Shown here in pieces: positions 12,173 through 59,775 of a DNA stretch of 64,000 bases. Source of the DNA: a virus (Duplodnaviria > Heunggongvirae > Uroviricota > Caudoviricetes); the IMG/VR virus record IMGVR_UViG_3300035492_000044, positions 46,179 through 110,178 of that record; one strand, given 5' to 3'. The position numbers were made by a program, and so were the translations under genes. Every line of letters starts with the position of its first letter. The first letter of the stretch is position 1. The notes below the pieces were generated by a model. That model was not told the DNA's origin. It ran no database searches and saw only the letters and a list, made by a program, of their open reading frames with translations.

Positions 12173-12191
12173 GTACGGCGAAAGCCTGTTA

Positions 12192-12226
12192 GGGTAATGG
12201 CGCGAATGTCATTACCCTATTTATTT
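12192..12226 (+). terminator. terminator-like hairpin GGGTAATG..CATTACCC + TATTTATTTC, fused to a degenerate class-B motif
   Basis: The hairpin begins at the GGGT of the motif's GTTAGGGT. Confidence 0.5.
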
Positions 12227-12242
12227 CTAGGAGATATGATTC

Positions 12243-13385: not shown

Positions 13386-13387
13386 TC

Positions 13388-15071: not shown

Positions 15072-16567
15072 TGACACTCAAGATTGGCATCACTTCGTTT
15101 GGCTCTGGTGTACGTGGTATCTCCAAGTACGAGGAGAGTCTTAGTAATAGCGGTATCATCGATTCTGGTCTCTTCCAGATGTTGGTCCAAGAGATGGGTG
15201 CTGAACTCATCATTGTAGGTGCCATGCAGAAACGCTGTAAGGATATTGTGCAGGATGGCACTAATCCTTATCACGAGCCGTGGATGGACGGTATCCGAGT
15301 AGTTCAGTCATGGGCTGATATGCCAGAAGACCTGGATTGCCTAGTAGTGCAGCAAGGCGCTGAGAATCTTCGATTCACTGTCAGCTTTGATGGTGTCACC
15401 TGCACTGCTGCCTATCATGTCTACAAACTGATGGACGTATACCGCAACACTCCTGTTGTATACTTCCAGACAGACTTTGGCACTCCTCTCTGGATGCCAG
15501 AGACTTATGGTGGATTCTTCGCCAAGGCATTCAAGCCAGATGCTCTGTACAAGAAGCGTAAGGTGTATGTCCTTCCTGCTGGTCACATCAACAATGATGC
15601 AGCACGTAAGATCATGGTTAATACTCTGGCCTATCGTCATAGTGGAATCGAGATCCTGGACAACTATCCTGACATTCACTTCCTGACTGACATCAACTAC
15701 AAAGATAGTTACCCTATCACCAGTGCTCCGACAGGTCTGGCATTCGCTGGTAAGTCACGGAGATTCGGTGACAGATCTCCTCTCGTACGAGACATCATTA
15801 AGGCTCTGCCCAGTGAGATCAGCTTCACTCTCATGGGCAAGTGGTCTGAGATGGTAACTGAAGTCCTAAGAGAAAATGATGTCAATAAGGGTTATCTGCA
15901 GCAACATAGCGAAGTCTTGAAGACTTACAATGAAGCAGGATTCACTCTGTACATTACTGCCCCAGAGTATCGCACCATTCGAGCCTTCACGTCTCGTATG
16001 ACTGATGCCATTGTGGCTAATTGCCTGCCTATCATCTGGCACGAAGACTGGGATGTAATCAAGCATCAGTTCGGAGTTGATCCTGACGTAACTACTATCT
16101 TGGCTGGACTGGTAGTTGAAAAGGCAGAAGATATTCCCCATAAGATGGTTGAGTTCTACGATAAGGACAAGCGTGAGAGTATCCTGTCCATGCTTCGTAA
16201 TACTTTCCTCTATCAGTCGGATACTGCCAAGGAGAACATTGGTCGTAAGCTGGAGTACATCATCAATCACGACGATGCTGATGAGACTGTAGCGGTACCT
16301 ACTGAGATCTTCGGCTTGTACGTTGATGGGCAGTTGTCGGCACGTCGTAATAAGGCAGCCACTACTGAAGAAGCTCAAGCACGCTATGAAGAAGCATTCA
16401 ATAGCGAGCTGACAGCTAATGACATCTACAACGTTAAGATGCAGACTGGACTCTTCATGGAGTACGGTAGCAAGGAGACGTTCAAAGACGTACCTCAAGA
16501 GTGGCTGGAGAAGACCTTCAATACTCCATCTACTAAACGCTTCCTCGAGTACGCCCTATCCAACTAG
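15071..16567 (+). CDS. hypothetical; weak resemblance to T4 alpha-glucosyltransferase (Agt) N-terminus
   Basis: 'KIGITSFGSGVRGISKY' vs Agt 'RICIFMARGLEGCGVTKF'; 'RSPLVRDIIKA' vs 'RSPAFIAIKEKG'. Tentative. Confidence 0.3.
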   Translation: MTLKIGITSFGSGVRGISKYEESLSNSGIIDSGLFQMLVQEMGAELIIVGAMQKRCKDIVQDGTNPYHEPWMDGIRVVQSWADMPEDLDCLVVQQGAENLRFTVSFDGVTCTAAYHVYKLMDVYRNTPVVYFQTDFGTPLWMPETYGGFFAKAFKPDALYKKRKVYVLPAGHINNDAARKIMVNTLAYRHSGIEILDNYPDIHFLTDINYKDSYPITSAPTGLAFAGKSRRFGDRSPLVRDIIKALPSEISFTLMGKWSEMVTEVLRENDVNKGYLQQHSEVLKTYNEAGFTLYITAPEYRTIRAFTSRMTDAIVANCLPIIWHEDWDVIKHQFGVDPDVTTILAGLVVEKAEDIPHKMVEFYDKDKRESILSMLRNTFLYQSDTAKENIGRKLEYIINHDDADETVAVPTEIFGLYVDGQLSARRNKAATTEEAQARYEEAFNSELTANDIYNVKMQTGLFMEYGSKETFKDVPQEWLEKTFNTPSTKRFLEYALSN

Positions 16568-16642
16568 GGCGCTTAGAGTACTGGAGAGCCAGTTAGGGTG
16601 GGAGGAGTTTCGGCTCCCTCACCCTTCTACTTAGGAGACATC

Positions 16643-17362
16643 ATGAGCTACATGTCGTCACAAGAGATTCTGGATAGGTTAGTGGAATTGTCTGGTAAAG
16701 AAGACAAGACTGAGCTCATCCAGTTCGTAACTGATAAGCTGCCATGCATTAAGAATTCTGATATGTGCCAGCCTATCTTCGAATTCATCTACAAGAACGT
16801 ACCTGATCCATGGCATTACATGGATGACCGTCATAATGCCTTCAATATGAAGTTCATGAATGATCTTCGTCCACATATCGAAGGTAAGTCCGTAGTGGAT
16901 ATTGGATCTGGCGTAGGTGTTAAGTGGAACTATGCAGGATTTCCACTTCAGTCTGTTACTCTGGTGGATATTAGCCCAGAGTGCATTGAGAAGGCTAAGG
17001 AGCTGACTAAGCCTAATTCCTTCTTCGTGAACTACGTAGTCGGTGGATTCCAGGACTACGATATCCCAGAAGACTTGGATGTTCTCTATACGATGAACGC
17101 CCTGTACTATGTTCCGACCGGAGCACGTACTACCTTCTACCGTAATGTGGCTGTGAAGAAGCCTCGCATGATTATTACGGGATCGAATAATGTCGACCCT
17201 AATGACGACTGGCGTGACTACATGATCAAGTGGCCAGAACTCCTCAGCACCAGATACAAGTGTCAAGATGTACTTGGGGACAAGAAGTATGAGCTGGCTG
17301 GTGTAGTCCACACCGTTGACGGTGACTTGGATTACTACCTAAACGTCTACGTTTTGAAATAA
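16643..17362 (+). CDS. Class I SAM-dependent methyltransferase
   Basis: 'VVDIGSGVGV' motif I and 'DLDVLYTMNALYYV'. Start moved to the ATG after RBS 'aggaga', downstream of the class-A motif hairpin. Confidence 0.55.
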   Translation: MSYMSSQEILDRLVELSGKEDKTELIQFVTDKLPCIKNSDMCQPIFEFIYKNVPDPWHYMDDRHNAFNMKFMNDLRPHIEGKSVVDIGSGVGVKWNYAGFPLQSVTLVDISPECIEKAKELTKPNSFFVNYVVGGFQDYDIPEDLDVLYTMNALYYVPTGARTTFYRNVAVKKPRMIITGSNNVDPNDDWRDYMIKWPELLSTRYKCQDVLGDKKYELAGVVHTVDGDLDYYLNVYVLK

Positions 17363-17404
17363 AACGTGTAAAATCACGACGTTTAAGTCTCTTGAAAACC
17401 TGTT

Positions 17405-17436
17405 AGGGTAGGGGAACTCTTCCTCTACCCTATTTT
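17405..17436 (+). terminator. terminator-like hairpin GGGTAGGGGAA..TTCCTCTACCC + TATTTTTG, fused to class-B motif
   Basis: Hairpin + T-run immediately after the motif. Confidence 0.5.
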
Positions 17437-17451
17437 TGTGAGTAATTATTC

Positions 17452-18456
17452 ATGAGAAATAAGCCTGCAGACATACCTTATTGTGGGGTAGATAGAGCCA
17501 AGATTCTATCAGCACGCCCAATAATTAATGCTGATGTTCTCAGAATGTACGTGTCGTGGATCAAGCAGAGAGCTCACGTATACTACATGAAAGAGATTGT
17601 CGGAGAGCCTGGTCCATGGACCACTGATCCGATTCTTAGTAAGTACAAGTTCACCAATATCCGGCGAGAACTGGATCGGGAGACTAAGTGGCTTATTGAT
17701 AATGTGATCAACAGTGATAAGCTGTCTATCCTGGATAAGGCACTCAATTGTGCATTATTCCGGTGCATCAATACTGGGCAGTACTTCCAGGAAGTCTGGC
17801 ATGGTCCACTACGCCTTAGTAATATGAAGGATTTCGATTTCAATCATCTTAATGATATGGAACGAGATTCGGAATATTCTGGACCTCTGCAGTCTAATGC
17901 GTACTTCCTTTCTCAGATGAGACGAGTGGCTAACGACCTATGCAAGAGGCAGAATGCTAGTCATCTAGCATACAGCAATACTGCTCTAGCGTACTTCATA
18001 TGGTTCCATCGCCGGACTATTGAAGATGCATTAGCAGCTGATACTCCATCTAAGGCTACGATTCTTCTGGAGACTATCCCAGGATTCGGTAAGTTCATGT
18101 CATACCAAGTGTGGGTAGACTGGACTTACATGGAAGACTACGAGTTTAGTGAAAATGAGTTCGTACTATCTGGACCAGGATGTGACCTAGGCCTGTCGTA
18201 TCTATTCAAAGACCAGGATGGCATGTCTCCAGAAGAGACTCTATTCTGGATGAGAGACAATCTAGTTAAAGTCTGCAGAGACCTTGAAATAGATTTTGAT
18301 CCTGGAGTGATTCAGAGCTACTTACCACCAGATAAACGTAACTTTGGTGTTATGCAGCACGAAAATGGTCTATGTGAGCTAAGCAAGTATTACCGTCTTC
18401 ATACAGGTGAACGTATGAGGGCAAGATATTATGCCCCTGGTACTGATAGTAAATAA
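17452..18456 (+). CDS. hypothetical protein
   Basis: ORF preceded by class-B motif 17377 and RBS. Confidence 0.4.
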   Translation: MRNKPADIPYCGVDRAKILSARPIINADVLRMYVSWIKQRAHVYYMKEIVGEPGPWTTDPILSKYKFTNIRRELDRETKWLIDNVINSDKLSILDKALNCALFRCINTGQYFQEVWHGPLRLSNMKDFDFNHLNDMERDSEYSGPLQSNAYFLSQMRRVANDLCKRQNASHLAYSNTALAYFIWFHRRTIEDALAADTPSKATILLETIPGFGKFMSYQVWVDWTYMEDYEFSENEFVLSGPGCDLGLSYLFKDQDGMSPEETLFWMRDNLVKVCRDLEIDFDPGVIQSYLPPDKRNFGVMQHENGLCELSKYYRLHTGERMRARYYAPGTDSK

Positions 18457-18862
18457 GAGGACTTATCCTCTAACTGACATTGAGTATGTCGGGAGACCCT
18501 CTCCTCTTGGTAATCCGTTCGAGATAGGATGTGATGGTACCAGACGAGTTGTAATAGAAAAGTATCGATTGTGGTTACATGAGAAGATAAGTAATCGCGA
18601 CCCTCTTATTATTACTGAGCTGACAAGACTTCATAATGAGTTAGTCAGCAAGTATATGATTAAGTTAGCATGTTGGTGCTCCCCTCTTCAGTGTCATGCA
18701 TGTGTGATAAAACACGTTCTTGATAATTGGGAGAAGTATATGTCTACTGAAGTAGAAAGCTGTCTTGATGACATTAATGAAGTTATTCCGCCTGAGGATA
18801 AACCTCTGGAAGATGTAAATGACGGTGATGCTACACCGGCATATGTTAATCAAGACCGGTAA
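18431..18862 (+). CDS. hypothetical Cys-rich protein
   Basis: ORF overlapping the upstream gene end. Confidence 0.35.
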   Translation: MPLVLIVNKRTYPLTDIEYVGRPSPLGNPFEIGCDGTRRVVIEKYRLWLHEKISNRDPLIITELTRLHNELVSKYMIKLACWCSPLQCHACVIKHVLDNWEKYMSTEVESCLDDINEVIPPEDKPLEDVNDGDATPAYVNQDR

Positions 18863-26164: not shown

Positions 26165-26286
26165 TTTAATGCTGGTACTCGATTTAGGGTACCAGCTTTT
26201 TATATGCCATTCATTCCAACGTCCAGATAAGTCGAAACCCTGTAAGGTCGGGGAAGGTCCTCCACTTAATTAGGAGTTTAATTAGT

Positions 26287-26571: not shown

Positions 26572-27101
26572 GTCATGTTCGGATCTACCACTACCACATA
26601 ACCGTGGAGTGTGATCGTGAAGAACTGATTAATTTCTCCAAACTATTAGGAGCTAAGGCAACTACTATCGATTTGCATCGAGATGCCAGGATGCAGATTG
26701 ACCGTATGCTAACCAAATACTCCACCGATCTGGCAGATATGAAGAGTATTACTGCCAGTCATTCAACCCAGATCCACGAATTAGGATATGAGGTAAAGAG
26801 AGCAAAGATCGAGGAAGTCCTTAGTACCTTCGTAGGTATTGACATAAAGGACTACTTGTATCTTGAGGCTCATATCAAAGTGGCTGATGACGGCCATCTC
26901 CCGGACGTAGATGGATTCTCAATGTCCACTAATCCATTCCAGGGAAATAGATTCTATAATGCTCGTATTTATACTGAGGAAGACCTCGTACGATACTGGC
27001 GGAATATTAAGTATCTACCTAACATAGTCAAGACTCAACTCGAAGGAGTAGTCTATGACTCAAACCAAGACCACGACAAGTGGTGGAGTAATCATGAATA
27101 A
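26568..27101 (+). CDS. hypothetical protein
   Basis: ORF, ATGA-coupled to the upstream gene. Confidence 0.4.
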   Translation: MSHVRIYHYHITVECDREELINFSKLLGAKATTIDLHRDARMQIDRMLTKYSTDLADMKSITASHSTQIHELGYEVKRAKIEEVLSTFVGIDIKDYLYLEAHIKVADDGHLPDVDGFSMSTNPFQGNRFYNARIYTEEDLVRYWRNIKYLPNIVKTQLEGVVYDSNQDHDKWWSNHE

Positions 27102-27588
27102 AGCACAGAAAGTTCTTAGTAAGCTTCGTAGCATTAATGAGGGCTATATCGCTATCTCATTTGATGCAGATACACGTCAGCGTCTGTCGGAGATCTGTGA
27201 TCTTATTGGCGAGACTTCTATCATGGAGGAAATCTCCTTCGTCGATAGTAACGAGTTCCATACGACCCTCATGTACTCTCCCACTACCCCGGTACTAGAC
27301 ATCATTCCGGAACTGGTAGGTAAGACTATCGTGGCACATAACCCACGATTCCAACTGTTCGGACCAGAAAATGATGTACTCGTAATTCAGTTCGAATCTC
27401 CCGAGCTGGATATTCTGAATCAGAAGTACAAGGATATGGGTGAGATTCCAAGTGAACTGAGTGCAGAGTACAAGCCTCACATTACTCTGGCTAAGGATGT
27501 AGTAGGCCTTGAAATGCCTACTCTTCCGGCACTACCTCTCAACATCCCATTGGTTATTACTGACCATTACGCTGAAGAAATCAAGTAG
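27094..27588 (+). CDS. 2H phosphoesterase (LigT/Acb1-like) carrying the paralog-family N-terminal peptide
   Basis: Two HxT/S motifs, 'FHTTLMYS' and 'PHITLAKD'; N-terminal 'MNKAQKVLSKLRSINEG'. Confidence 0.7.
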   Translation: MNKAQKVLSKLRSINEGYIAISFDADTRQRLSEICDLIGETSIMEEISFVDSNEFHTTLMYSPTTPVLDIIPELVGKTIVAHNPRFQLFGPENDVLVIQFESPELDILNQKYKDMGEIPSELSAEYKPHITLAKDVVGLEMPTLPALPLNIPLVITDHYAEEIK

Positions 27589-27593
27589 GTAAT

Positions 27594-28418
27594 ATGGCCA
27601 ATAAGGTTTATCGTGATGGCGAGCGAGACGGATACGGTCCTCGCCATACTAAGAACTTTAATCCCAATAACTACATCACTGTCTTTACTGATGCCTCCTA
27701 TTGTGATAGGACAGGTAAAGGAGGTATGGCTGCCTGGATCAAGGCAGCCGATGGAGTTACCCATAAACTGTACGAGAGCTTCCGAGCTAAGGACTCTGTA
27801 TCAGCAGAGAAGCAGGCTCTACAAACAGCGCTTGACTACATTATTCAGAACTTCCACACTGAGAACAAGACTCTTGTAATCAACTGTGACTGCATGCCTG
27901 TACTTGAGAGTCTGGATGTAGAGGAGATTGAAGAAGCTGGGATGTTCCTGAAGATTACTCTGAAACATGTCAAGGCTCACCGAGGTGTAAATGGACCTCG
28001 TTCATCAGTGAACACCTGGTGTGACAGCAGAGCTAAGGAGATCATGAGACTCTTCCGGGATCAGAATACGGAAGTAGGGTTTACTGTAGAAGTAGAAGAC
28101 TTCGCAGCCAGACATCGTGATAGTAAGAAGACAATAGAGGAACCATCTATGCAGGGTGAGTACAAGACATTCAACGAATGGAAGTCGTTGGGTAGAATAG
28201 TATGTAAGGGAGAACGCTCTCATAAGAGGAATGATGAGGGCAAGGCTGTATTTCATTATGACCAGACGGATAGTCTAGGTAAGAGTGAGGCTCCTCGTAA
28301 TGTCAATCACGTGAGAGGTTCCGGCATACCGGATCTTGAGAATTCTCGTGAGAATGAGAATCTGGTTAGTTCCTATACAATGTACGATGAGTACTGCAAG
28401 GAAGCTCCCTTCATGTAA
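27594..28418 (+). CDS. RNase H1-like ribonuclease with C-terminal extension
   Basis: 'VFTDASY' (D), 'AEKQAL' (E), 'INCDCM' (D), 'KAHRG..NTWCDSRAK' (H/D) catalytic pattern. Confidence 0.7.
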   Translation: MANKVYRDGERDGYGPRHTKNFNPNNYITVFTDASYCDRTGKGGMAAWIKAADGVTHKLYESFRAKDSVSAEKQALQTALDYIIQNFHTENKTLVINCDCMPVLESLDVEEIEEAGMFLKITLKHVKAHRGVNGPRSSVNTWCDSRAKEIMRLFRDQNTEVGFTVEVEDFAARHRDSKKTIEEPSMQGEYKTFNEWKSLGRIVCKGERSHKRNDEGKAVFHYDQTDSLGKSEAPRNVNHVRGSGIPDLENSRENENLVSSYTMYDEYCKEAPFM

Positions 28419-28511: not shown

Positions 28512-28826
28512 GTGACAAGCATGGTTCGTCCAGTTTCGGTTATTATGCGCGAATATCGTCAGTCCACTGTTTCTTCGATTGCAGTATTCGACGAGCTTCT
28601 CAGCTACCTTCGACTGGAGGTTCGCCACGTATCTCTTGACGTGATCGCTGACCGCTGCAATATGCACCCGAATACTCTGGCTCGTTGGATGTCTGGTGAC
28701 ACCAAGTACCCCAGAACAATTTCTATCATGCAAGTGGCAGAGTACTTCGGTCTTGAACTCCAGCTTGTAGCTATCCGCAGCAAGACTATCAAGGCCAAGT
28801 CGAAGATCGATATCCGGAAAGTATGA
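28512..28826 (+). CDS. HTH DNA-binding protein (XRE-like)
   Basis: 'VSLDVIADRCNMHPNTLARWMSG' helix-turn-helix; preceded by class-A motif 28440. Confidence 0.5.
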   Translation: MTSMVRPVSVIMREYRQSTVSSIAVFDELLSYLRLEVRHVSLDVIADRCNMHPNTLARWMSGDTKYPRTISIMQVAEYFGLELQLVAIRSKTIKAKSKIDIRKV

Positions 28827-28833
28827 GGTAAAT

Positions 28834-29208
28834 ATGCAGCTTCCTTCAAATCTTCTTGAGATCCAACTTAACTCGTCCTCAGTCCAGACTGCTATTGAAG
28901 TGGTTCTGGACGAGATTATCGGGGCATATGTTCCAGTGAAAGCTAACCTGGAGATAGGGCCAGAAGGTCCCATGATTCAGGTTACCTCGACATCCGAGCT
29001 CAGTACTCCCCGTCCTCGAGTATTTAAGAGCCTCAAGCTCGAGAGTAAGGGTGGCTGCTGGGATGCTGAGAAAGAAGTTTACCGCATCCCGATGATCTAC
29101 GTTTACACCAACATCAACGATGAGTCTGGTGAGATCCCGATTGTCGAAATACGAGTTAACTCTCGCGGGACTTACCACAGTAATTCCAACGATGGGGAGA
29201 TTGTGTAA
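28834..29208 (+). CDS. hypothetical protein
   Basis: ORF. Confidence 0.35.
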   Translation: MQLPSNLLEIQLNSSSVQTAIEVVLDEIIGAYVPVKANLEIGPEGPMIQVTSTSELSTPRPRVFKSLKLESKGGCWDAEKEVYRIPMIYVYTNINDESGEIPIVEIRVNSRGTYHSNSNDGEIV

Positions 29209-29519
29209 TGAGAAAGTGTCTGAAGAATGGCGTCAACCTGCTGGTAGATGGCAAGCTGAGTCGTGGTGACCTCTACCTCGAAAATGGTGCTCTGATGGTT
29301 CGTGGAACTGATCCTATTGTTCACCCTGAGATGCACCACATCGACATGAAGATCCTGGCTCATAAGTCGGAGGAGGAACGTGGCTACGTCAACTTCTATC
29401 CTGACCCATCGGAGCAGATTATCTTCTCCATTCAGTTCTTAAATGAGGTCTGTAAAATCAACCCAGATCTGGATCTCAAGTCTTCCTGTCGTATTTCCGT
29501 CGTCGGAATAATCCACTAA
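29208..29519 (+). CDS. hypothetical protein
   Basis: ORF. Confidence 0.35.
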   Translation: MRKCLKNGVNLLVDGKLSRGDLYLENGALMVRGTDPIVHPEMHHIDMKILAHKSEEERGYVNFYPDPSEQIIFSIQFLNEVCKINPDLDLKSSCRISVVGIIH

Positions 29520-29532
29520 GTAGGACCCTGAA

Positions 29533-29724
29533 ATGATCAAGACGTTGACACTGCAGTGCTCAGGTATTCGGTCTACTGACCGAGGTGTAGTTGTCTCACA
29601 TGATGACTCCTTGGACATTGTAATTCACGGAAAGAATAGTTCTGTCAACTCACTTGTTCTTAGCCTCGAGGACACCATACGTCTTCGGGACTTCCTTAAT
29701 GACCACATAGAGAAGAGAACATAA
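29533..29724 (+). CDS. hypothetical protein
   Basis: ORF. Confidence 0.3.
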   Translation: MIKTLTLQCSGIRSTDRGVVVSHDDSLDIVIHGKNSSVNSLVLSLEDTIRLRDFLNDHIEKRT

Positions 29725-30065
29725 TGGAAGAGTTTAATGGGTATAAGGAAATCGTAACTCAGTTCTGGGGATTCGATGGCCGTTATGCCAGCCAGCTGAT
29801 GTATGCTCTCCCTGATAGGGAATTCCTGGAGAGTCCAGTATTGTTTCTAGATACTGACGAATGCCCTGAGGGCTTTATTGAGGGAAGCCGTCTCCTTAAG
29901 TATATGGGGACTGACATGGTGCGGGTCACTATCCCCATCAACGGCGAAGAGATACCGGCAGTTACTATGACAGCTGACGGCGGATTTATCAGCTTACTGT
30001 TTCTTGCCAAGCACAAAGACAAGATTGAAGCAGAGTTCCCTGGTATAGCGTGGGTGAAGAAGTGA
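29724..30065 (+). CDS. hypothetical protein
   Basis: ORF. Confidence 0.35.
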   Translation: MEEFNGYKEIVTQFWGFDGRYASQLMYALPDREFLESPVLFLDTDECPEGFIEGSRLLKYMGTDMVRVTIPINGEEIPAVTMTADGGFISLLFLAKHKDKIEAEFPGIAWVKK

Positions 30066-30232
30066 TTGAAGACGAGAAAGAGAAAGACTTCCATAAGCTT
30101 TCTGCAGCTAAACGATTCGGTGTACCTGTCGAGAAGGTGACTCCTGAACAGAGGAGGGCAGCTAAGTCTGCCAATTACTTCGATATGTACCACGATCCTG
30201 AATCCTTCAATAAGTTCTTCCAGTCTTTGTAG
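30050..30232 (+). CDS. hypothetical protein
   Basis: ORF, weak. Confidence 0.3.
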   Translation: MGEEVIEDEKEKDFHKLSAAKRFGVPVEKVTPEQRRAAKSANYFDMYHDPESFNKFFQSL

Positions 30233-30246
30233 AAGATAACAATAAA

Positions 30247-30579
30247 ATGACTAAATCCTTTATTGACCGGGTTGAGGACACTAGTATCCTCCAGTACATC
30301 GATCTCTCGTCAGATAACACCGAGTTCCATTGTGACGGAGAAGTTATCTGTCAAGTCGATGGAAATATGGCTTTCCTGACGGATAGCCTAGGTGTCCGCA
30401 TAGGTCGATTCCACCTCCATAATGGTGAAGGTGGATATCGCTGGGTATTCAAACGTGAAGAGTTCCCGGACGATGACTATGGTCGCTCAGTTCGTGATGA
30501 CCTGATCAGCTACGAACGAACTGTAGTCGCGAGACTAGTTGCTGAGAAAGTAATCAAAGTACCTGAGGTGTCTGAGTAA
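30247..30579 (+). CDS. hypothetical protein
   Basis: ORF. Confidence 0.35.
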   Translation: MTKSFIDRVEDTSILQYIDLSSDNTEFHCDGEVICQVDGNMAFLTDSLGVRIGRFHLHNGEGGYRWVFKREEFPDDDYGRSVRDDLISYERTVVARLVAEKVIKVPEVSE

Positions 30580-31112
30580 TGAATAAGCCCTGGATGATTC
30601 AAGTTGATAACGCAATGCAGACTAACTATCAGTACGCGCTTATCATGCCAGTTGGTGATCTAAGTGATCTTCCTAACTTCAAGCCAGAATTAACTCCATT
30701 CCAGATGCTGGAGTATGGAGTATTTGGTGGTAAGTACTTCGGTGATATCCCAGATACTACGGAGTACAACGAAGAGTTCAGGGAGCTTATTCGTCGTAAG
30801 TCGGCAGGGGTAGGTAAGCCCTACGATGTAAATCTCAATTACTTCAAGGTAGATGCAAGTCAGTCTCTGACTGATTGGGTAGCTAGTGGCTGGGTACGTG
30901 AGCAAGATCCTCGTGGATGGTTCGAGTGGTATTGCCGTACCTGGTTCGGTCGCAGAAGTCCCGACGATAATCGGCAGATTGGAAGATGGTCAGCCATTAC
31001 TCGCCATATTGGACAGATTAAGAAGCACTGTGAAATAGGTGACCATAACTGCCGTCCTCGTCAACGTCAAGCTCTACTTCACTGGGCTTATGACACTGTA
31101 GGTAAGTATTAA
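30579..31112 (+). CDS. hypothetical W/R-rich protein
   Basis: 'PRGWFEWYCRTWFGRRSPDDNRQIGRW'; no family recognised. Confidence 0.4.
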   Translation: MNKPWMIQVDNAMQTNYQYALIMPVGDLSDLPNFKPELTPFQMLEYGVFGGKYFGDIPDTTEYNEEFRELIRRKSAGVGKPYDVNLNYFKVDASQSLTDWVASGWVREQDPRGWFEWYCRTWFGRRSPDDNRQIGRWSAITRHIGQIKKHCEIGDHNCRPRQRQALLHWAYDTVGKY

Positions 31113-31543
31113 TGGAAAGAATAGATTCATTCAGAGGAGAGTATGAATTCCTCTCCAATATGTACCCAGTTAAGCTGGTGTACGAAGGGATCGAATATCC
31201 GTCTTCTGAGAATGCCTATCAAGCAGCTAAGTACACGGATGTCAAAGTCAAGATGCATATAGCTACCTTGACACCTAAGGAATCGAAGAAGTATTCACGT
31301 GAGCACCCAATTACTACTCCTAATTGGAATGCTGTTCGTCTCCACACTATGTACCGAATCCTTGAGATTAAGTTCTCTGTCCCTGAGTTGTTATTCAAGC
31401 TCTTGAAGACAGGTAATGCTGAGCTTGTTGAAGGGAACTGGTGGGGAGACATCTACTGGGGTAAAGTAGATGGATGTGGCCATAACTTCATGGGCAAGCT
31501 ATTAACCGGAATACGTGAAGTAAATAAGGACGTGAGGATATAA
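31112..31543 (+). CDS. NADAR (YbiA-like, DUF1768) domain protein
   Basis: 'FRGEYEFLSNMYP', 'SSENAYQAAKY', and the C-terminal 'ELVEGNWWGDIYWG' match the NADAR/YbiA pattern. Confidence 0.75.
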   Translation: MERIDSFRGEYEFLSNMYPVKLVYEGIEYPSSENAYQAAKYTDVKVKMHIATLTPKESKKYSREHPITTPNWNAVRLHTMYRILEIKFSVPELLFKLLKTGNAELVEGNWWGDIYWGKVDGCGHNFMGKLLTGIREVNKDVRI

Positions 31544-31545
31544 CG

Positions 31546-31947
31546 ATGTCTGACAACGAAGTTCAAATGAATCCCTATGAAGTCAAGTTCAAAGACCACT
31601 TCATGGCTGCTACTACCTTGACAAAGCAGATAATTCAGAAGAGTCAGGATACTGAGAACAAGATTATGCAGGCGTGCAGAGATCTTGATTCTCTCGATGC
31701 ATCTCTGAATCTCCTGGAAGATCAGGTAGCTAAGGATGCTATAACAGCCAAGATGGACTCTCTTCGCGAAGACATCAAGTCTTTGAATCGTCTCCTTGAG
31801 ACGTACAAGAGACAAGGTACGGAGAACTCGAATAAGATCCGTATTCTCCAGGAAGTATGCCCTCATACTGAAACTGTATGGGATCACGACAATCCTCATA
31901 CTCGTGAGGACTACTACCGCTGCACTCTGTGTAATTCTGTTAACTAA
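31546..31947 (+). CDS. hypothetical protein with C-terminal zinc ribbon
   Basis: 'CPHTE..CTLCNS' Cys pairs. Confidence 0.4.
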   Translation: MSDNEVQMNPYEVKFKDHFMAATTLTKQIIQKSQDTENKIMQACRDLDSLDASLNLLEDQVAKDAITAKMDSLREDIKSLNRLLETYKRQGTENSNKIRILQEVCPHTETVWDHDNPHTREDYYRCTLCNSVN

Positions 31948-32111
31948 TAAGGAACTTCTGTGGACACTTACGAATTCAATGTACTGATGAAGAACGGCAC
32001 TCAGGACAAGGTACGTGCTACCGGTCATGACTATAAGTCGGCTCACCAGACTGCAAAGAATAGTAATAAGAAGATCGTGAAGATTATCTCCGGTCGCAAG
32101 ATGTAAGTATA

Positions 32112-32146
32112 GTCGGGAGTGGGAAACTGCTCCCGACTATTATTTT
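32112..32146 (+). terminator. rho-independent terminator (GTCGGGAG..CTCCCGAC + TATTATTTT)
   Basis: Hairpin + T-run. Confidence 0.65.
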
Positions 32147-36059: not shown

Positions 36060-36144
36060 CCGGGTATGGTGAAATCGGTAGACACAAGAGCCTTAAACCC
36101 TCTGGACTATTGTCATGCCAGTTCGAGTCTGGCTACCCGGACCA
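36060..36144 (+). tRNA. tRNA-Leu (anticodon TAA), type II
   Basis: Acceptor CCGGGTA/TACCCGG, long variable arm, T-arm GCCAG-TTCGAGT-CTGGC, encoded CCA. Confidence 0.75.
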
Positions 36145-36359
36145 TATTTCTAAACGACGTTTTACTACGTCGAAACCCTGTTAGGGTGGAAGACGAGTGT
36201 ATTTGAGAAGGCTGGCCAGAATAGCTTCTGGTAGGGTGAACTCTCTGGAGACCGATGACGCCATGCTTCGGTAGCGCATGAAGATGATCCGTCAGTCCTT
36301 CTCCAATACAATCTAGACCGACGTCCAAATAAATCGAAACCCTGTTAGGTTGGAAGTGC

Positions 36360-36438
36360 GATTAAAAGGACCCTAGGCTAACCTCAGTAGGTCTCCCCCA
36401 GATGCTGAAGCTGGATGTCCTAGGATCCTTTTAATCTC
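36360..36438 (+). repeat. Long imperfect inverted repeat (~17 bp arms, ATTAAAAGGACCCTAGG / CCTAGGATCCTTTTAAT) forming an ~80 nt stem-loop
   Basis: Lies directly between class-B motif 36319 and tRNA-Arg. Confidence 0.5.
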
Positions 36439-36443
36439 ATTTC

Positions 36444-36520
36444 GCGTCCATAGCTCATCTGGATAGAGCAGGGGATTTCTAATCCCCTGGTGGTAGGTTC
36501 GAGTCCTACTGGACGCGCCA
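36444..36520 (+). tRNA. tRNA-Arg (anticodon TCT)
   Basis: Acceptor GCGTCCA/TGGACGC, anticodon loop TTTCTAA in stem GGGGA/TCCCC, GGTTCGAGTCC T-arm, CCA. Confidence 0.8.
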
Positions 36521-36969
36521 TATACCCGGCACTTACTGATGTCGTAGCTCGATAAACTCTAGTATCATTAGTTAGGATCGAAACCTCTACTAATGCTCTA
36601 TTAGATAAGGTTGGGTCAGTGGAGCAGTAGCCCTTACGTGGAGTGGGTATGTGTCAGAAGAGGCACTCCGCTCGATAACTGTCACGTGTGAATAATGAAT
36701 ACTATGCAGCTAGTTTTATTATTCTGGGTTTAGATGTCATGCTGCTACTCATGCATTATTTCTCCTGTTGGAGAGTGCAGGCGGAGAGGAGGCATCCTCG
36801 TAGAAGCCGAGTAGAGTCGACCACGGTCTAGCGGTGGAGGCAGTGCCCGTACTGTCATTTAGAATGATATCCTTCGGCTGTAAGGATGACGGGTAATAGA
36901 GCAAGCGGTGAGTACTAACTGCCTGCAGGACTTTGATGTGGTGTCAGAGTCCTGTGGAGTAAGTATTCT

Positions 36970-37046
36970 GCGGAATTAGCTCAGTTGGATAGAGCATCTG
37001 CCTTCCAAGCAGAGGGTCACGAGTTCGAGTCTCGTATTCCGCTCCA
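36970..37046 (+). tRNA. tRNA-Gly (anticodon TCC)
   Basis: Acceptor GCGGAAT/ATTCCGC, loop CTTCCAA, U73, CCA. Confidence 0.8.
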
Positions 37047-37050
37047 TTAT

Positions 37051-37127
37051 TGGGGTATAGCACAGTTGGTAGTTGCGTCTGACTGTTAATCAGAATGTCG
37101 TAGGTTCGAGCCCTACTACCCCAGCCA
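37051..37127 (+). tRNA. tRNA-Asn (anticodon GTT)
   Basis: Acceptor TGGGGTA/TACCCCA, loop CTGTTAA, GGTTCGAGCCC T-arm, CCA. Confidence 0.7.
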
Positions 37128-37371
37128 AATTTGGTGTTACTCCCGATCGAAAGATACTGAAACATGAAATCGTCTCCGCACGATGTAGGCCTTACGAGGT
37201 CATGATCAGCCAAGAGATGACAGGTCCGAGTAGATTAGTAGCACCGTCTTAATCACGCAGAGGCGGACTGCATCGAGAGCCATTAGAAAAGTGTAACTCC
37301 ACGAGAACCTCAGACTCTGGACTACATGACCGGCACTAGCTTCACTCGATCTAATAATTAAACGCAACCAT

Positions 37372-37456
37372 GCGGATGTGGTGAAATTGGTAGACACACC
37401 TGGTTTAGGTCCAGACGCCTACGGGCGTGAGAGTTCGAATCTCTCCATCCGCACCA
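37372..37456 (+). tRNA. tRNA-Leu (anticodon TAG), type II
   Basis: Acceptor GCGGATG/CATCCGC, long variable arm, loop TTTAGGT, CCA. Confidence 0.65.
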
Positions 37457-37711
37457 TATTCGAGACCCCACTAGTCAGCCGAAGTACTGGTGGAGATTAG
37501 TGTCATGAGCTAGTCTGCCCAGGTCTCGAATCAAAACAGGAGAGTCCTTAGATGGTGCTATCTAGCCAGTTGCATTCGTAGTCTACCCGTCGGCTACATT
37601 GAATGCCTAAGTGACTCTCCGCCTATTATGGGGTATGCCTCGTCTAAAGCATTGGGATCTGTGATGATACCAGGGTGGGTAACTACGTAGTCCCACATAC
37701 TCCACCAGTTT

Positions 37712-37787
37712 GCCGGTATAGCTCAGCTGGTAGAGCAGCTGACTTGTAATCAGCAGGTCGTGAGTTCGAATCCCACTGCCGGCACCA
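37712..37787 (+). tRNA. tRNA-Thr (anticodon TGT)
   Basis: Acceptor GCCGGTA/TGCCGGC, stem GCTGA/TCAGC with loop CTTGTAA, CCA. Confidence 0.8.
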
Positions 37788-37799
37788 TATTGTGGTTAC

Positions 37800-37916
37800 T
37801 GGTTCCTATCATTATGTGGTTGGAAGCAAAAAGTCTAGTAATCACAACCTAATTGCTGTAATCCCTCTTGAAGTGAAACATGATGGACGGGAGTTCGACT
37901 CTCCCCAGCTCCACCA
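37800..37916 (+). ncRNA. ssrA: tmRNA acceptor piece (3' half of a permuted ssrA): T-arm + 3' acceptor strand + CCA
   Basis: 'GGACGGGAGTTCGACTCTCCCCAGCTCCACCA' ends 37916 and closely matches the E. coli tmRNA 3' end '..GGGTTCAACTCCC.CCAGCTCCACCA'. No matching 5' acceptor strand upstream. Left boundary is approximate. Confidence 0.65.
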
Positions 37917-37986
37917 TAGTTACCCTGGTAGTGACAGCCTTTGAGTGCGGTCTTAATCTACCATGGCTATCAGAGTAACTATGATG

Positions 37987-38240
37987 GGGCTGATCTGGAT
38001 TCGACATTGTGCGTAGTGAATAGAGGCAGCACAGGTAGATGACTGCCTGAAGTTGAGCCACCTTGCGGAAGGTCTGGGCTCAGCTGAAATAGCATAAATC
38101 AAGTAACTGCCAACGATGAATCGTTCGCACCTCTGGCTCTGGTTGCTTAAGTAACCTGATGCTGGTCGGGTATCTTCGGATCGCTCTCCTGCTATAGCTA
38201 ATACCTATAGTTGCCTCGGAACAGAAAGAGAGCACCTATT
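37987..38240 (+). ncRNA. ssrA: tmRNA coding piece (5' acceptor strand GGGGCTGATCTGGATTCGAC..., tag ORF ANDESFAPLALVA-stop)
   Basis: 'GGGGCTGATCTGGATTCGAC' at 37987 matches the tmRNA 5' end 'GGGGCUGAUUCUGGAUUCGAC'. Tag frame 'GCC AAC GAT GAA TCG TTC GCA CCT CTG GCT CTG GTT GCT TAA' at 38109-38150. Lies downstream of the CCA end, so the gene is circularly permuted. 3' boundary approximate. Confidence 0.7.
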
Positions 38241-38257
38241 TCATTAGTGAGGACTAA

Positions 38258-38467
38258 ATGGAACATCACATCCTTAATCTCACTGCCCAGAAGGGTCGCC
38301 TGTATTACTACCAGGGTAATTTCTACCATCCGCTTGATCTGGTAGGTAACTCGGTAGGTCTAGTGAAGAGAGGAATTCGAGAGTTCCTCGCTAAGAATAA
38401 AGATATGGTAGCTCGTGACAGAGCTAGCCCAGACTACAAGACTCTGGTTGAATTATCAGGTCTTTAA
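38258..38467 (+). CDS. hypothetical small protein
   Basis: ORF within the tRNA island. Confidence 0.3.
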   Translation: MEHHILNLTAQKGRLYYYQGNFYHPLDLVGNSVGLVKRGIREFLAKNKDMVARDRASPDYKTLVELSGL

Positions 38468-38570
38468 CTAATCCTGTCGTTGGGACTACCCAGTAGCCAT
38501 GAACTTCTGGGCGTCAGTAGAAGATACTGGACCAGTACGAAACCTGGTAATAATTAATTAGGAGAGCAGC

Positions 38571-38774
38571 ATGATGCTATCTGAGTTGGGTCAACGTATC
38601 TTGGCCCACTATGTTGAAAGACGTAGCGGTAAGTCGGGTAACTACATCCCTACTGACTGTGATCGTAAAGCAGCTCAACTAGCTGCTGAGAATACCACGG
38701 ATCATCTACGTGGAGCTACTGTTATGGCTCGGATGTATGATGACAAGCTTGCTGGTAAGGCTCCTATTAAGTAG
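38571..38774 (+). CDS. hypothetical small protein
   Basis: ORF with RBS 'ggagag'. Confidence 0.3.
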   Translation: MMLSELGQRILAHYVERRSGKSGNYIPTDCDRKAAQLAAENTTDHLRGATVMARMYDDKLAGKAPIK

Positions 38775-38917
38775 GAGCCGACTCGTACTTTCTGATGAGT
38801 AGCCCGAGTATAAAAGGCACGAAACTGTAATAGTCAAAGAGCCACTGATGGTGGCCAGTTAGTAACTCACACTGTAGCTAACTGAATTACGTTTGCAGAG
38901 GACCGTCAATCTGAAGC

Positions 38918-39625
38918 ATGAAGTGTACGCCTATGGTACTGACACTACCTTGGAAGTTGTACTGTGCTGGCGCTATACCAGCACTTAATACAGTGCAGCC
39001 TACAATCTATTCTTGCCTCGAACTGGATGAGTCCACAGAGGATGCGCACTTGAGTAGATTGTGGGAAGTACTGGAGATAATCATGACCAGAGAAGATTTA
39101 ATAAATCTATCCAAGATACCTCCTTCAAATATATCAGTAGCAAAGTCTCTTGAAGCTAGAGGTTATCCATATTATGGTAACCTAAAATCTTCATATCCGA
39201 TTCATTGGGCCAGCTTCTCTGCTATGCACGGAAGAGTTAGAGATTTTGGCCTTGATTGTGATTTTCCTAGAAATGTGGATGGATTTATTGATTTTATCCT
39301 TTATGTCGGACCTGTTCCTGGAGATATGATTAGGCCAACTCTTGGTAGATCAGATCATTCAATTGGGTACTTAAAGGGTAATTTTAAGTGGCAGGAGTCC
39401 AGTGATAATACATCGGAGTCTGCTACAAGAAACAAGACTGTAGTCAAGATTCAAGAGTGTCGTTTAAATAGGTTGGAAGACCTAGTAAGTAGTCTAGGGG
39501 ATAAAGTTGAAATAGACTCCTTATTTACGACCTCTCACTTTAGATATAAGAAGGATTTGTACAGGCTACTTAGAAGTAGGGGATATAAAATATCTTCTGA
39601 CTATAAAGTAGCTAGTAAAGTTTAA
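38918..39625 (+). CDS. HNH homing endonuclease (paralog 1)
   Basis: 'LGRSDHSIGYLKGNFKWQ' resembles the HNH 'RIDNxxGYxxxNxRW' motif; AT-rich codon usage differs from the neighbours; embedded between tRNAs. Confidence 0.5.
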   Translation: MKCTPMVLTLPWKLYCAGAIPALNTVQPTIYSCLELDESTEDAHLSRLWEVLEIIMTREDLINLSKIPPSNISVAKSLEARGYPYYGNLKSSYPIHWASFSAMHGRVRDFGLDCDFPRNVDGFIDFILYVGPVPGDMIRPTLGRSDHSIGYLKGNFKWQESSDNTSESATRNKTVVKIQECRLNRLEDLVSSLGDKVEIDSLFTTSHFRYKKDLYRLLRSRGYKISSDYKVASKV

Positions 39626-39626
39626 T

Positions 39627-39716
39627 GGAGAGTTGGCCGAGTGGTTTAAGGCACCTGACTTGAAATCAGACGGATCAGCAATGGTCCCCAGGGTTCGAAT
39701 CCCTGGCTCTCCACCA
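39627..39716 (+). tRNA. tRNA-Ser (anticodon TGA), type II
   Basis: Acceptor GGAGAG../..CTCTCC, long variable arm, loop CTTGAAA, GGTTCGAATCC T-arm, CCA. Confidence 0.7.
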
Positions 39717-40045
39717 TATTGACCTAAGAAGATTACACTCATCATGGGTGGGATTAGCCTCTTATCTTCTTGGTCAATATTCTCTGTTACTCACAAGTAC
39801 CTTAACTAACAACTGCACAGACGTTAGCCAACCAGATGTGAGTAATCGAGGTTCCACTCTCATTCCGAGAGTGTTGATAAGGGGGTGATCCTTATCTCCG
39901 GCTGCAGCTACGGATACTGCAGAAAGGCTAGTTAATGTCGTGAGACATCGACAGGCCTACCGTTGTACCAGAGGCGAATAGGGTAGCTCCCGTTCCAGCA
40001 CTGCTTTGCTGGATAGCCTCTTCTTATACCTAAGCAGAGGTTAGT

Positions 40046-40585
40046 ATGAACATACCTGAAATAAAATATGATACCGAGTACCTAATAAAAATAGCTTTCC
40101 ATAATTTTGATTTATGGAGCCATCACGAGCAAATGGCCGTTAAGTCTATGGAAGCTAGAGGTATTCCATGTTATGGTTTATTACCTAAAATGTTTCCGAT
40201 TCATCGGAACCGTTTTAGAAATATGCATAATAGAATAGACGAACAGTGTTTAGAGACTTCGTTTAAAAGAGATTTAGAAGGTTTTGCTAAATTTGTGGAA
40301 TATCTTGGACCAGTTCCTACTGAAATGAAAGTCCCGTCTTTAGGAAGAATCGATCATTCTAAAGGTTATGTAATAGGCAACTTTACATGGCAGGAACTTA
40401 GAGATAATATAGAAGAAATGGCCAATAGAACCAAGTCTTCAGATAATAAGTTCTGGGTAAACAGCCCAGGATGCACAGGTTATAGATGGTATAACGACGG
40501 ACAGACTGAATTCTTTCTGAGAGAAAATAATCCTTTAATTGAAGACGCTGGTCTAGTTAGAGGTCGGTTTTCTAATCGACGTTAA
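40046..40585 (+). CDS. HNH homing endonuclease (paralog 2)
   Basis: 'SLGRIDHSKGYVIGNFTWQ' HNH motif; clear paralogy to 38918-39625 ('EARGIPCYG', 'LGPVPTEMKVPSLGR'). Confidence 0.55.
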   Translation: MNIPEIKYDTEYLIKIAFHNFDLWSHHEQMAVKSMEARGIPCYGLLPKMFPIHRNRFRNMHNRIDEQCLETSFKRDLEGFAKFVEYLGPVPTEMKVPSLGRIDHSKGYVIGNFTWQELRDNIEEMANRTKSSDNKFWVNSPGCTGYRWYNDGQTEFFLRENNPLIEDAGLVRGRFSNRR

Positions 40586-40638
40586 TCCATCAGAAGCCAC
40601 TAATGCTGTGGAAAACTCTGCAAAAATTTAGGTGACTT

Positions 40639-40932
40639 ATGAATAAGGTAGTTAGATTCCTTAATGCCATTCGTAGGTCACACCCAGATATGGTCGAGTT
40701 GTATACTCAGGGCCAATGCTACAACTTCCATCTTATCCTCCGAGAGGTCTTCCCAGATGCTGTTGCCTGGTATGACCCAGTTGAGGGCCATGTGTACTCC
40801 AAGATTGGAGACTGCTGGTACGATATAAGAGGAAGACATTTCAAACTGGATCCACGAGCTAGTATTCTGGATCATCGTATGTCCGACAAACCTCATCGCT
40901 GGGGTGGACGTGATAGAAGAAGACTAAGGTGA
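40639..40932 (+). CDS. hypothetical protein
   Basis: ORF. Confidence 0.4.
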   Translation: MNKVVRFLNAIRRSHPDMVELYTQGQCYNFHLILREVFPDAVAWYDPVEGHVYSKIGDCWYDIRGRHFKLDPRASILDHRMSDKPHRWGGRDRRRLR

Positions 40933-40935
40933 GTT

Positions 40936-41502
40936 ATGGCTCGTAAATCATTCAAGGACATGACCCAGTTTCAAGTAGGCCAGCACTTCTGTGAATGTGA
41001 TCTAGGCCAGGTACTCGAGTTCGCTATCACTACCGAACCTGTAGTTAAGGACGTGGATGGTCGACGCCAGATTACCTGGACAGGTCGTGACGTGAAGACT
41101 CAGCGGGATATTGAGTATCTCGTTACTGAGGGCTTCGAACATTATGGCCCTAAGATCTACGACCCAGCTGACATGTTCAGCCCAGAGGATGTAGCTCTTG
41201 CTCTCCGACAGTTGCGCCAGTCTCCTAATGTCCTTCAGAAGGTCGAGGTAGATCCTGGTGCACCTGGTGGTGATGAGACGGTAGTTAGCTGTATAGTTCC
41301 TATTAATGGAAAAGATCATCACCTAGTCCTACCGGTTACATTGCATTATCGTGGTATCTGCAGACTGGCTGGATATAATGACGACAGACTGTACACCATT
41401 ACCTACGTCTCTCAGCAAGGTAGTGGTATAGTCGGGCCTAATGACTCTCTCCAGATTACAGCTGGTACAAAGATAAATGTGGCATTGACCAACAATGCAT
41501 AA
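40936..41502 (+). CDS. hypothetical protein
   Basis: ORF. Confidence 0.4.
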   Translation: MARKSFKDMTQFQVGQHFCECDLGQVLEFAITTEPVVKDVDGRRQITWTGRDVKTQRDIEYLVTEGFEHYGPKIYDPADMFSPEDVALALRQLRQSPNVLQKVEVDPGAPGGDETVVSCIVPINGKDHHLVLPVTLHYRGICRLAGYNDDRLYTITYVSQQGSGIVGPNDSLQITAGTKINVALTNNA

Positions 41503-41546
41503 CGACTTCCAGATAGTCCGAAACCCTGTTAGGGTGGAAGTCGGAA

Positions 41547-41888
41547 ATGGAGAGAGTTATGCTTGGTAAACCCATGAAGTCGATTAAGGTTCAATATGAG
41601 CCTGGCTGGAATGGTGGAACTTGGTCTGTAGTCAGTCGGAAGATTGATGCAGTATCTAAAGTCCACGATCTTCCTATGGATGTCAAGGTCAAGATACGGG
41701 GTATCCTAATCGACGCCTGTAAATCTACTCGAAAGGGTACTGACTATGACATGGGCCATCAGTACGACTGGGAATCCTGGGACCTGACTCTTAAGGTCAA
41801 GACTGAACTGGGTGTAATGGAGTTCAGTTTCTATGAGTATGCCCAGAAGCATCCTCGAGTCAAGACCTGGGAGATCTTCTACGAATAA
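41547..41888 (+). CDS. hypothetical protein
   Basis: ORF after class-B motif 41503. Confidence 0.4.
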   Translation: MERVMLGKPMKSIKVQYEPGWNGGTWSVVSRKIDAVSKVHDLPMDVKVKIRGILIDACKSTRKGTDYDMGHQYDWESWDLTLKVKTELGVMEFSFYEYAQKHPRVKTWEIFYE

Positions 41889-41966
41889 GGGCCTCTAGCA
41901 TAACTGGTAAATGCGTCCGGCTCATAACCGGAGGACAGATCGGTTCGAATCCGACGGGGCCCACCA
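41889..41966 (+). tRNA. tRNA-Met/Ile2 (anticodon CAT)
   Basis: Acceptor GGGCCTC/GGGGCCC, stem TCCGG/CCGGA with loop CTCATAA, GGTTCGAATCC T-arm, CCA. G1-C72 pair means it is not an initiator. Confidence 0.75.
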
Positions 41967-59694: not shown

Positions 59695-59775
59695 TTTAGA
59701 AGGATTTAGAATGTAATCTGACTAACAATAAGTTAGAATTACTTAGTCTTGTTAATTAATCTGAGGTAATCCATA

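Follow-up and report, generated by a model that had tools for sequence, protein, structure and literature searches.

Gp30.3 (AdfN) of phage T4 strips from DNA the ADP-ribose (ADPr) which DarT1 has attached to it and shields the T-even phages from DarTG1 (PMC11825919). This anti-DarT1 function of phage NADAR proteins was first predicted bioinformatically and then shown experimentally (Johannesman et al. 2025, PMC11825919). Two further phage NADARs unrelated to it, AdfN-Bas32 and AdfN-Bas60, likewise take off the ADPr made by DarT1; they neutralise DarT1 in uninfected Escherichia coli and rescue three unrelated phages, RB69, T5 and Bas25, on DarTG1 hosts; T5 on DarTG2 hosts is not rescued (PMC11825919). 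In vitro, all of the NADAR subtypes tested, E. coli YbiA included, hydrolyse guanine-ADPr and not thymine-ADPr (Cihlova et al. 2024, PMC11125620), and the rescue which they provide in vivo varies by subtype (PMC11125620). Here we describe a 143-amino acid NADAR protein encoded at 31112..31543 on the plus strand of a 64,000-nucleotide stretch of tailed phage DNA (IMG/VR record IMGVR_UViG_3300035492_000044, positions 46,179 to 110,178), which in its full length will be referred to as the window. Counter-defence by such an enzyme is an already published mechanism, of which the window NADAR is a probable further example.

The original prediction, which was made from the letters alone, recognized a phage NADAR protein with clear NADAR/YbiA signature motifs at this position, and both the gene and its signature are borne out. 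The interval is exactly one plus-strand open reading frame (ORF) extending from the ATG at 31112 to the TAA at 31541–31543. Its product matches Pfam PF08719 with 61.6 bits, the gathering score being 35.1 (E=1.4e-16), over profile positions 9–160 of 163, and phrog_1017 with E=4e-41; the fold matches, and the signature residues are intact. The ORF encodes the core domain alone, with neither an N- nor a C-terminal extension. Since its N-terminus (MERIDSFRGEY) lines up in the alignment with the starts of the homologues, the start codon is correct. Phmmer related the protein to PDB entries 2B3W (E. coli YbiA; 1.1e-10) and 8BAU (the NADAR of Phytophthora nicotianae, PnNADAR, in complex with ADP-ribose; 5e-4). 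With 75 homologues as input, AlphaFold2 gave a model of YbiA-like alpha+beta fold, the mean predicted local distance difference test (pLDDT) score of which is 96.3; Foldseek aligned it to the same two structures with template modelling (TM) scores of 0.84 and 0.80, respectively, and returned no other significant match. A search of PDB with the profile of the clade also reached YbiA and PnNADAR alone, and did not reach the structures of DarG1. No sequence in the databases searched is more than 55% identical to the window NADAR.

The ADP-ribose contacts of PnNADAR are E43, K50, K75, R79, W89, R93, E125, D130 and W133 (PMC11543638). Mapped through an alignment of 84 sequences, all nine of these ligand and catalytic positions are kept in the window NADAR, as E33, K40, K59, R63, W72, R76, E107, D113 and W116. 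The first two belong to the SSENAYQAAK motif (31208..31231, plus strand), in which the catalytic Glu33 is specified by nucleotides 31208–31210 and the phosphate-binding Lys40 by 31229–31231; this Glu and Lys are invariant in 84 of the 84 aligned sequences. They correspond not only to E43/K50 of PnNADAR but also to E36/K43 of AdfN-T4, whose equivalent residues have been the subject of reported mutagenesis (PMC11825919), and to E88/K95 of E. coli C7 DarG1. In the latter protein mutagenesis revealed that E88 and K95, together with a subfamily-specific D171, are required for the hydrolysis of guanine-ADPr (PMC11543638). The EGNWWGDIYW motif (31430..31459, plus strand) contributes Glu107 (31430–31432), Asp113 (31448–31450) and Trp116 (31457–31459), the counterparts of Pn E125, D130 and W133. 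Across the 75 homologues no replacement of E33, K40 or E107 occurs, while D113 and W116 are nearly invariant. With all nine positions conserved, the window NADAR is very probably an active hydrolase rather than a decayed copy, and we place high confidence in the enzyme class and catalytic competence predicted from its sequence and model. The strict conservation of the catalytic residues across the whole clade argues for catalysis and against a noncatalytic protein which would bind ADPr so as to inhibit an ADPr-dependent defence, for example Retron-Eco1. An inhibitor of that retron is said to bind ADPr; for the window NADAR we judge such a role to be very unlikely.

The subtypes can be told apart by the residue which corresponds to Pn E125, this being Glu in the YbiA subfamily and His in the T4-type phage NADARs, while in the DarT1-associated (BC4488) antitoxins an Asp takes over the function of this Glu (PMC11543638). 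The window NADAR possesses Glu107 at this position. It was compared with the validated proteins AdfN-Bas32 (MZ501075, bas32_0066), AdfN-Bas60 (MZ501100, bas60_0111) and T4 gp30.3. The window NADAR falls into phrog_1017 along with Bas32, Bas60 and YbiA, and its sequence identity is 36% to Bas32, 33% to YbiA, 21% to Bas60 and 18% to T4 gp30.3. The motif LVEGNWWGDIYWG is common to the window NADAR and Bas32 (LIEGNTWGDTYWG), whereas YbiA differs (LVEHTENDAYWG). In a neighbour-joining (NJ) tree of 33 taxa (139 columns, 100 bootstraps; rooted on the long T4 branch) Bas32 is nested among the homologues of the window NADAR. YbiA, PnNADAR and Bas60 were left out of the smallest clade holding the window NADAR and Bas32 in 73–78 of 100 bootstraps, and a clade uniting the window NADAR with YbiA to the exclusion of Bas32 appeared in 2 of 100. 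These sequence comparisons assign the window NADAR with moderate confidence to the AdfN-Bas32 sub-clade.

AdfN-Bas32 of Escherichia phage IrisVonRoten (MZ501075: 61641–62090) is, like the window NADAR, a stand-alone protein of approximately 145 amino acids with no extension and with the same catalytic set, including EGNxWGDxYWG. Both genes sit among small early or accessory genes, and a gene for RNase H is located shortly upstream in both genomes. The two differ in that they share 36% identity alone, and in that the Bas32 phage is a T5-like siphovirus whereas the window derives from a novel phage of approximately 110 kb which possesses RNA polymerase beta-like genes and a 5-hydroxymethyldeoxyuridine (5-hmdU) kinase. 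AdfN-T4 is also an orphan phage NADAR; it possesses both the catalytic Glu and its Lys partner, and its anti-DarTG1 role is proven, but it belongs to Pfam family Phage_30_3 (PF08010) and to phrog_652, has His123 in place of Glu107 and is missing the D113/W116 segment; the full activity of AdfN-T4 needs the T-even context. A T4-type assignment of the window NADAR was rejected, with PF08010 scoring 19.5 bits where the cut-off is 36, and phrog_652 reaching E=2e-4 only.

The DarG1 proteins (E. coli C7, Geobacter lovleyi; BC4488) are members of the same superfamily and remove ADPr from guanine (PMC11543638). They are characterized by a basic extension at the N-terminus which binds DNA, by a catalytic Asp that precedes the superfamily Glu by two residues, and by a darT1 gene next to their own. 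None of these three features is seen in the window NADAR: it is a 143-amino acid core starting from the first beta-strand, it has Leu105 where the Asp would be, and no ADP-ribosyltransferase (ART) gene adjoins it. A DarG1-type assignment was rejected on these grounds and on the failure of the clade profile to find DarG1 structures. Nor does the protein belong to NCBIfam NF053876 (DS32_2, anti-phage NADAR), for which it scored 47.6 bits, the cut-off being 240. The match to PADLOC PDC-M42C is weak (26 bits), and the gene lies in a phage and not in the context of a bacterial defence system.

YbiA, the best structural match, is likewise a minimal NADAR core with Glu at the position of E107, and the window protein matches TIGR02464, described as a "riboflavin biosynthesis intermediates N-glycosidase". 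These likenesses would suit an auxiliary metabolic N-glycosidase of the YbiA type which clears reactive intermediates of the riboflavin pathway, an alternative that the original prediction had also put forward and which has not fared well. The match to TIGR02464 amounts to 50.9 bits, below the equivalog cut-off of 73.7, and the protein is of a single domain. A Pfam scan of the window ORFs, which cover 64 kb of the approximately 110-kb genome, revealed no riboflavin-pathway family (RibA/RibD). Position 59 is occupied by Lys in the window NADAR and in PnNADAR, which binds ADPr, but by Ala in YbiA; its GNWWGD is replaced by HTEND in YbiA; and the NJ tree groups it with AdfN-Bas32, apart from YbiA. 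YbiA further differs in that its gene is chromosomal and belongs to an operon under the control of LexA, and in not rescuing DarT1 toxicity (PMC11125620). Lastly, YbiA too hydrolyses guanine-ADPr (PMC11125620). Taken together these points make a riboflavin-related role highly improbable.

We consider counter-defence against DarT1-like guanine ADP-ribosylation of DNA to be a reasonably probable role for the window NADAR, judging from its sequence and from analogy with the published enzymes. A host DarT1-like ART would attach ADPr to the N2 of guanine in single-stranded phage DNA, and the resulting guanine-ADPr adducts would block phage replication. The window NADAR, co-expressed with other small accessory genes of the phage, would bind the ADPr, with K40, K59, R63, W72 and R76 gripping the diphosphate and E33, E107 and D113 surrounding the distal ribose. 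Hydrolysis of the ribose–guanine N-glycosidic bond would then leave the DNA unmodified again. Since such an enzyme targets the lesion and not the toxin, it should counter any guanine-directed ART, as AdfN-Bas32 does. The substrate would be guanine-ADPr on DNA; the timing of NADAR expression and a DarT1-like system in the host are elements which we infer. The original prediction had proposed an anti-DarTG role on the premise that NADARs hydrolyse guanine-linked ADPr in DNA. The premise is published for every subtype tested (PMC11125620), and homology (phrog_1017, the Bas32 cluster and the retained residues) speaks for the role, but its scope is too wide: because the adducts removed by published NADARs are those of guanine and not those of thymine, DarTG2 falls outside it, and "anti-DarTG" has to be narrowed to "anti-DarTG1-like".

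The same chemistry might be directed at bases beyond DNA guanine, for example at the guanine of RNA or at cytidine in either nucleic acid, in which case the targets would be RNA-targeting or pierisin-like ART toxins and not DarT1. NADARs including YbiA and T4 NADAR clear guanosine-ADPr from RNA (PMC11833690), and YbiA-type NADARs remove cytidine-ADPr (PMC12945103); the window NADAR has the YbiA-type Glu107. Specificity is a matter which sequence cannot decide. Phage defence by way of ADP-ribosylation of guanine or cytosine in RNA is, however, not documented in the literature cited here, and the chemistry being identical, this explanation is a refinement of the DarT1-directed role more than a competitor to it. 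We regard it as quite unlikely.

Several points weigh against the DarT1-directed role. Hydrolysis of guanine-ADPr in vitro is no guarantee of rescue in vivo: both YbiA and T4 gp30.3 show such activity in the test tube, yet do not rescue uninfected cells from DarT1 toxicity (PMC11125620; PMC11825919). The window NADAR carries the YbiA-type Glu (E107), with 36% identity to Bas32 to be set against 33% to YbiA. Support for the Bas32 clade is moderate, and comes from a simple NJ tree with a long-branch root. The window spans only about 64 kb of a genome of roughly 110 kb. Finally, there are the loci of the homologues. The closest, which are 55% and 51% identical, were found on metagenomic contigs ERZ27257345 (111 kb) and ERZ27275342, phage-derived in appearance. 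The closest homologue lies between the genes for NAMPT and a Nudix protein, at a locus which also has genes for purine synthesis (AIRC/SAICAR) and a DFP/flavoprotein. The second is surrounded by genes for RlaP, RNA ligase and Acb5, by one for a nucleotidyltransferase of the PolyA_pol type, and by NadR-like/Nudix genes. The surroundings of this NADAR clade thus vary, and settings of NAD salvage with Nudix, or of RNA ligase, suit other ADPr-related roles equally.

The varied neighbourhoods keep alive the view that the NADAR is active mainly towards ADPr derivatives of low molecular weight rather than on ADP-ribosylated DNA. Its candidate substrates are NAD-derived immune signals, toxic by-products, and intermediates of NAD+ salvage or of RNA repair. 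The viral NADAR survey of Iyer et al. (2022) favoured small-molecule ADPr derivatives as substrates, arguing that the majority of the NADAR, Macro and Nudix domains of phages have diffusible ADPr derivatives as their targets, and pointed to connections with NAD salvage and with the repair of RNA (PMC9503650). In addition to NAMPT and Nudix beside one homologue and the RNA-repair-type genes and Nudix about the other, the window itself specifies a signal-degrading Acb1 homologue (described below) and a DUF4326 protein (18431–18862, plus strand; 69 bits), the latter between the 5-hmdU kinase and the large subunit of ribonucleotide reductase (RNR). In viruses DUF4326 is often fused to NADAR, Macro and SLOG domains, and it has been predicted to function in ADP-ribose phosphate processing (PMC9503650). 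On the other side, NAMPT, Nudix, RNA ligase and Tpt1 were not found by Pfam in the window; hydrolysis of such signals has not yet been shown for any NADAR; and NADARs are inactive on ADPr at the phosphate ends of RNA and DNA, the Tpt1-type product (PMC11833690). The clade-mate Bas32, moreover, has a demonstrated anti-DarT1 activity of the DNA-repair type (PMC11825919). On balance we consider a mainly small-molecule function unlikely.

The Pfam scan of the window ORFs also gave no DarT or other ART (including DUF4433), macro, Nudix, NAMPT, RNA-ligase or riboflavin genes, and the window NADAR is an orphan without an adjacent ART. A CTP_transf_like match which might have been taken for a nicotinamide mononucleotide adenylyltransferase was rejected, since it belongs to a sugar enzyme of the mannose-phosphate isomerase type. 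The T4-like phages encode NADARs near ARTs, as with alt near 30.3 (PMC9503650), and by this precedent the window NADAR might reverse or limit the modifications made by an ART of the phage itself, in self-immunity or regulation. With no ART domain detected within the 64-kb window, this is the least probable of the explanations discussed here.

The original prediction had further described the gene as phage-encoded and lying among small accessory genes, a setting which we can confirm: the region is distinguished by genes on one strand, tRNAs with a transfer-messenger RNA (tmRNA), phage genes for replication and nucleotide metabolism, and a run of ORFs of 45–180 amino acids. The NADAR gene is situated inside this run (28512–32106), the members of which overlap or are separated by 14 nucleotides or less. 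A strong hairpin of the intrinsic-terminator-like kind on the plus strand (32109..32140), with a 14-bp stem followed by a T-run, closes the NADAR block, and an upstream terminator-like site (26171–26196) bounds it on the other side; both were recognized by pattern scan only. A scan for sigma-70 promoters gave results no better than those for shuffled sequences. Within the same terminator-bounded block are a homologue of the Acb1-like 2H phosphodiesterases (27055..27588, plus strand; PF23474, 46.8 bits with the cut-off at 27), which act against the cyclic oligonucleotide-based antiphage signalling system (CBASS), and directly after it an RNase H-like gene (27594–28418, plus strand). A terminator-bounded block containing an Acb1 homologue fits an accessory or counter-defence block.

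Immediately upstream of the NADAR gene is a gene for a 177-amino acid protein (30579..31112, plus strand), the TAA stop codon of which overlaps the NADAR ATG (TAATG). The two genes are co-transcribed and probably translationally coupled. The 177-amino acid protein had no match in Pfam, PHROGs, NCBIfam or PADLOC, and its AlphaFold2 model (pLDDT 82.5) no fold match in PDB. The family is very large, with at least 8000 scored candidates, and an identity of approximately 55% is kept between members from bacterial phyla far apart, among them Patescibacteria, Alphaproteobacteria and Kiritimatiellia. In an alignment of 41 sequences 46 columns are invariant, and the motifs DPRGWFQWYCRYYMGRR and QRQALLHWAYD are among the parts conserved in this way. 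Homologues are also present in the thymidine-hypermodified phages Carin-5 and YerA41, the YerA41 copy being annotated as a "structural protein". One could imagine that the NADAR and its coupled neighbour cooperate, adapting de-ADP-ribosylation to thymidine-hypermodified DNA; the 177-amino acid protein could then be a "potentiating partner" of the kind postulated for AdfN-T4, or a new enzyme acting on ADPr or modified nucleotides. A conserved module of the two was rejected, the genes not being adjacent in Cobetia phage Carin-5 and Yersinia phage YerA41 and the closest homologues of the NADAR having no 177-amino acid gene at their loci. The bacterial neighbourhoods of its homologues are not conserved, and the pairing with NADAR was not found in them. 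Because the pairing was unseen at the other loci examined, the 177-amino acid gene would be a chance neighbour, and cooperation between the two proteins is not favoured; we hold it to be very doubtful.

Downstream, and 2 nucleotides after the NADAR stop codon, is a gene for a 133-amino acid protein (31546..31947, plus strand) with a predicted coiled coil and a C-terminal Cys/His cluster (CPH...H...CTLC). It gave weak, sub-threshold matches only, to SMC/LmuB-like coiled coils. Further upstream in the run a small ORF of 60 amino acids (30050–30232, plus strand; a 56-amino acid gene on a Logan contig) has a weak match to PF00476 (2.3e-7). It resembles a stand-alone fragment of PolA and is located far from the gene for the full-length PolA-type polymerase at 52526–55702.

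The phage is novel, with a genome of approximately 110 kb, and the genes called in the window are all on the plus strand. A 4-kb region compared by megablast with phage genomes gave no match; an identical NADAR protein is present on a 30-kb Logan contig. Among the products of the window are an SbcC-like nuclease subunit, topoisomerase II subunits, class Ia RNR and a helicase. The nearest relative of its PolA is that of Acinetobacter phage Ab1-TPeters (38.7%), which also possesses a NADAR 48.5% identical to the window NADAR in a similar block of small ORFs. Two adjacent genes resembling the beta subunit of RNA polymerase (58240–61299, plus strand) match phrog_25354, 2987 and 3015, which represent the beta subunit of phage multisubunit RNA polymerases; the genome which possesses them measures only some 110 kb. 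A cluster of eight tRNA genes and a tmRNA gene extends from 36060 to 41966 on the plus strand. The tmRNA (approximately 37807–38241, plus strand) is of the permuted, two-piece type (Rfam RF04321, 104 bits; beta_tmRNA, 86.6 bits) and specifies the tag peptide ANDESFAPLALVA; this may hint at a betaproteobacterial host.

The window also specifies a 5-hmdU DNA kinase (17452–18456, plus strand; PF18723, 6e-57). The genes before it (in 9173–18456, plus strand) are those for an epimerase/dehydratase, a mannose-6-phosphate isomerase/cytidylyltransferase-like protein, a DegT aminotransferase and a methyltransferase, while between approximately 43 and 64 kb of the window there are dUTPase_2, thymidylate-synthase-like, YfbR-like nucleotidase and dCTP-deaminase-like genes. 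Since the 5-hmdU DNA kinase adjoins sugar-nucleotide enzymes, the thymidine of this phage is probably hypermodified by a sugar-decorated pathway.

By this analysis the Bas32-type AdfN clade gains a divergent member, whose phage lineage is uncultivated and probably thymidine-hypermodified. That novel lineage and the conserved, uncharacterised 177-amino acid neighbour are its only unusual points, and a specialist would not be surprised by the remainder. Its practical value is modest, consisting of an extra candidate enzyme for studies of NADAR specificity, and it raises no new question. Thymidine-modified phage DNA would keep its vulnerable guanines, so that a guanine-specific eraser would be useful to such a phage. 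The finding is in keeping with, and lends support to, the idea that large phages are widely exposed to pressure from the ADP-ribosylation of guanine in DNA.

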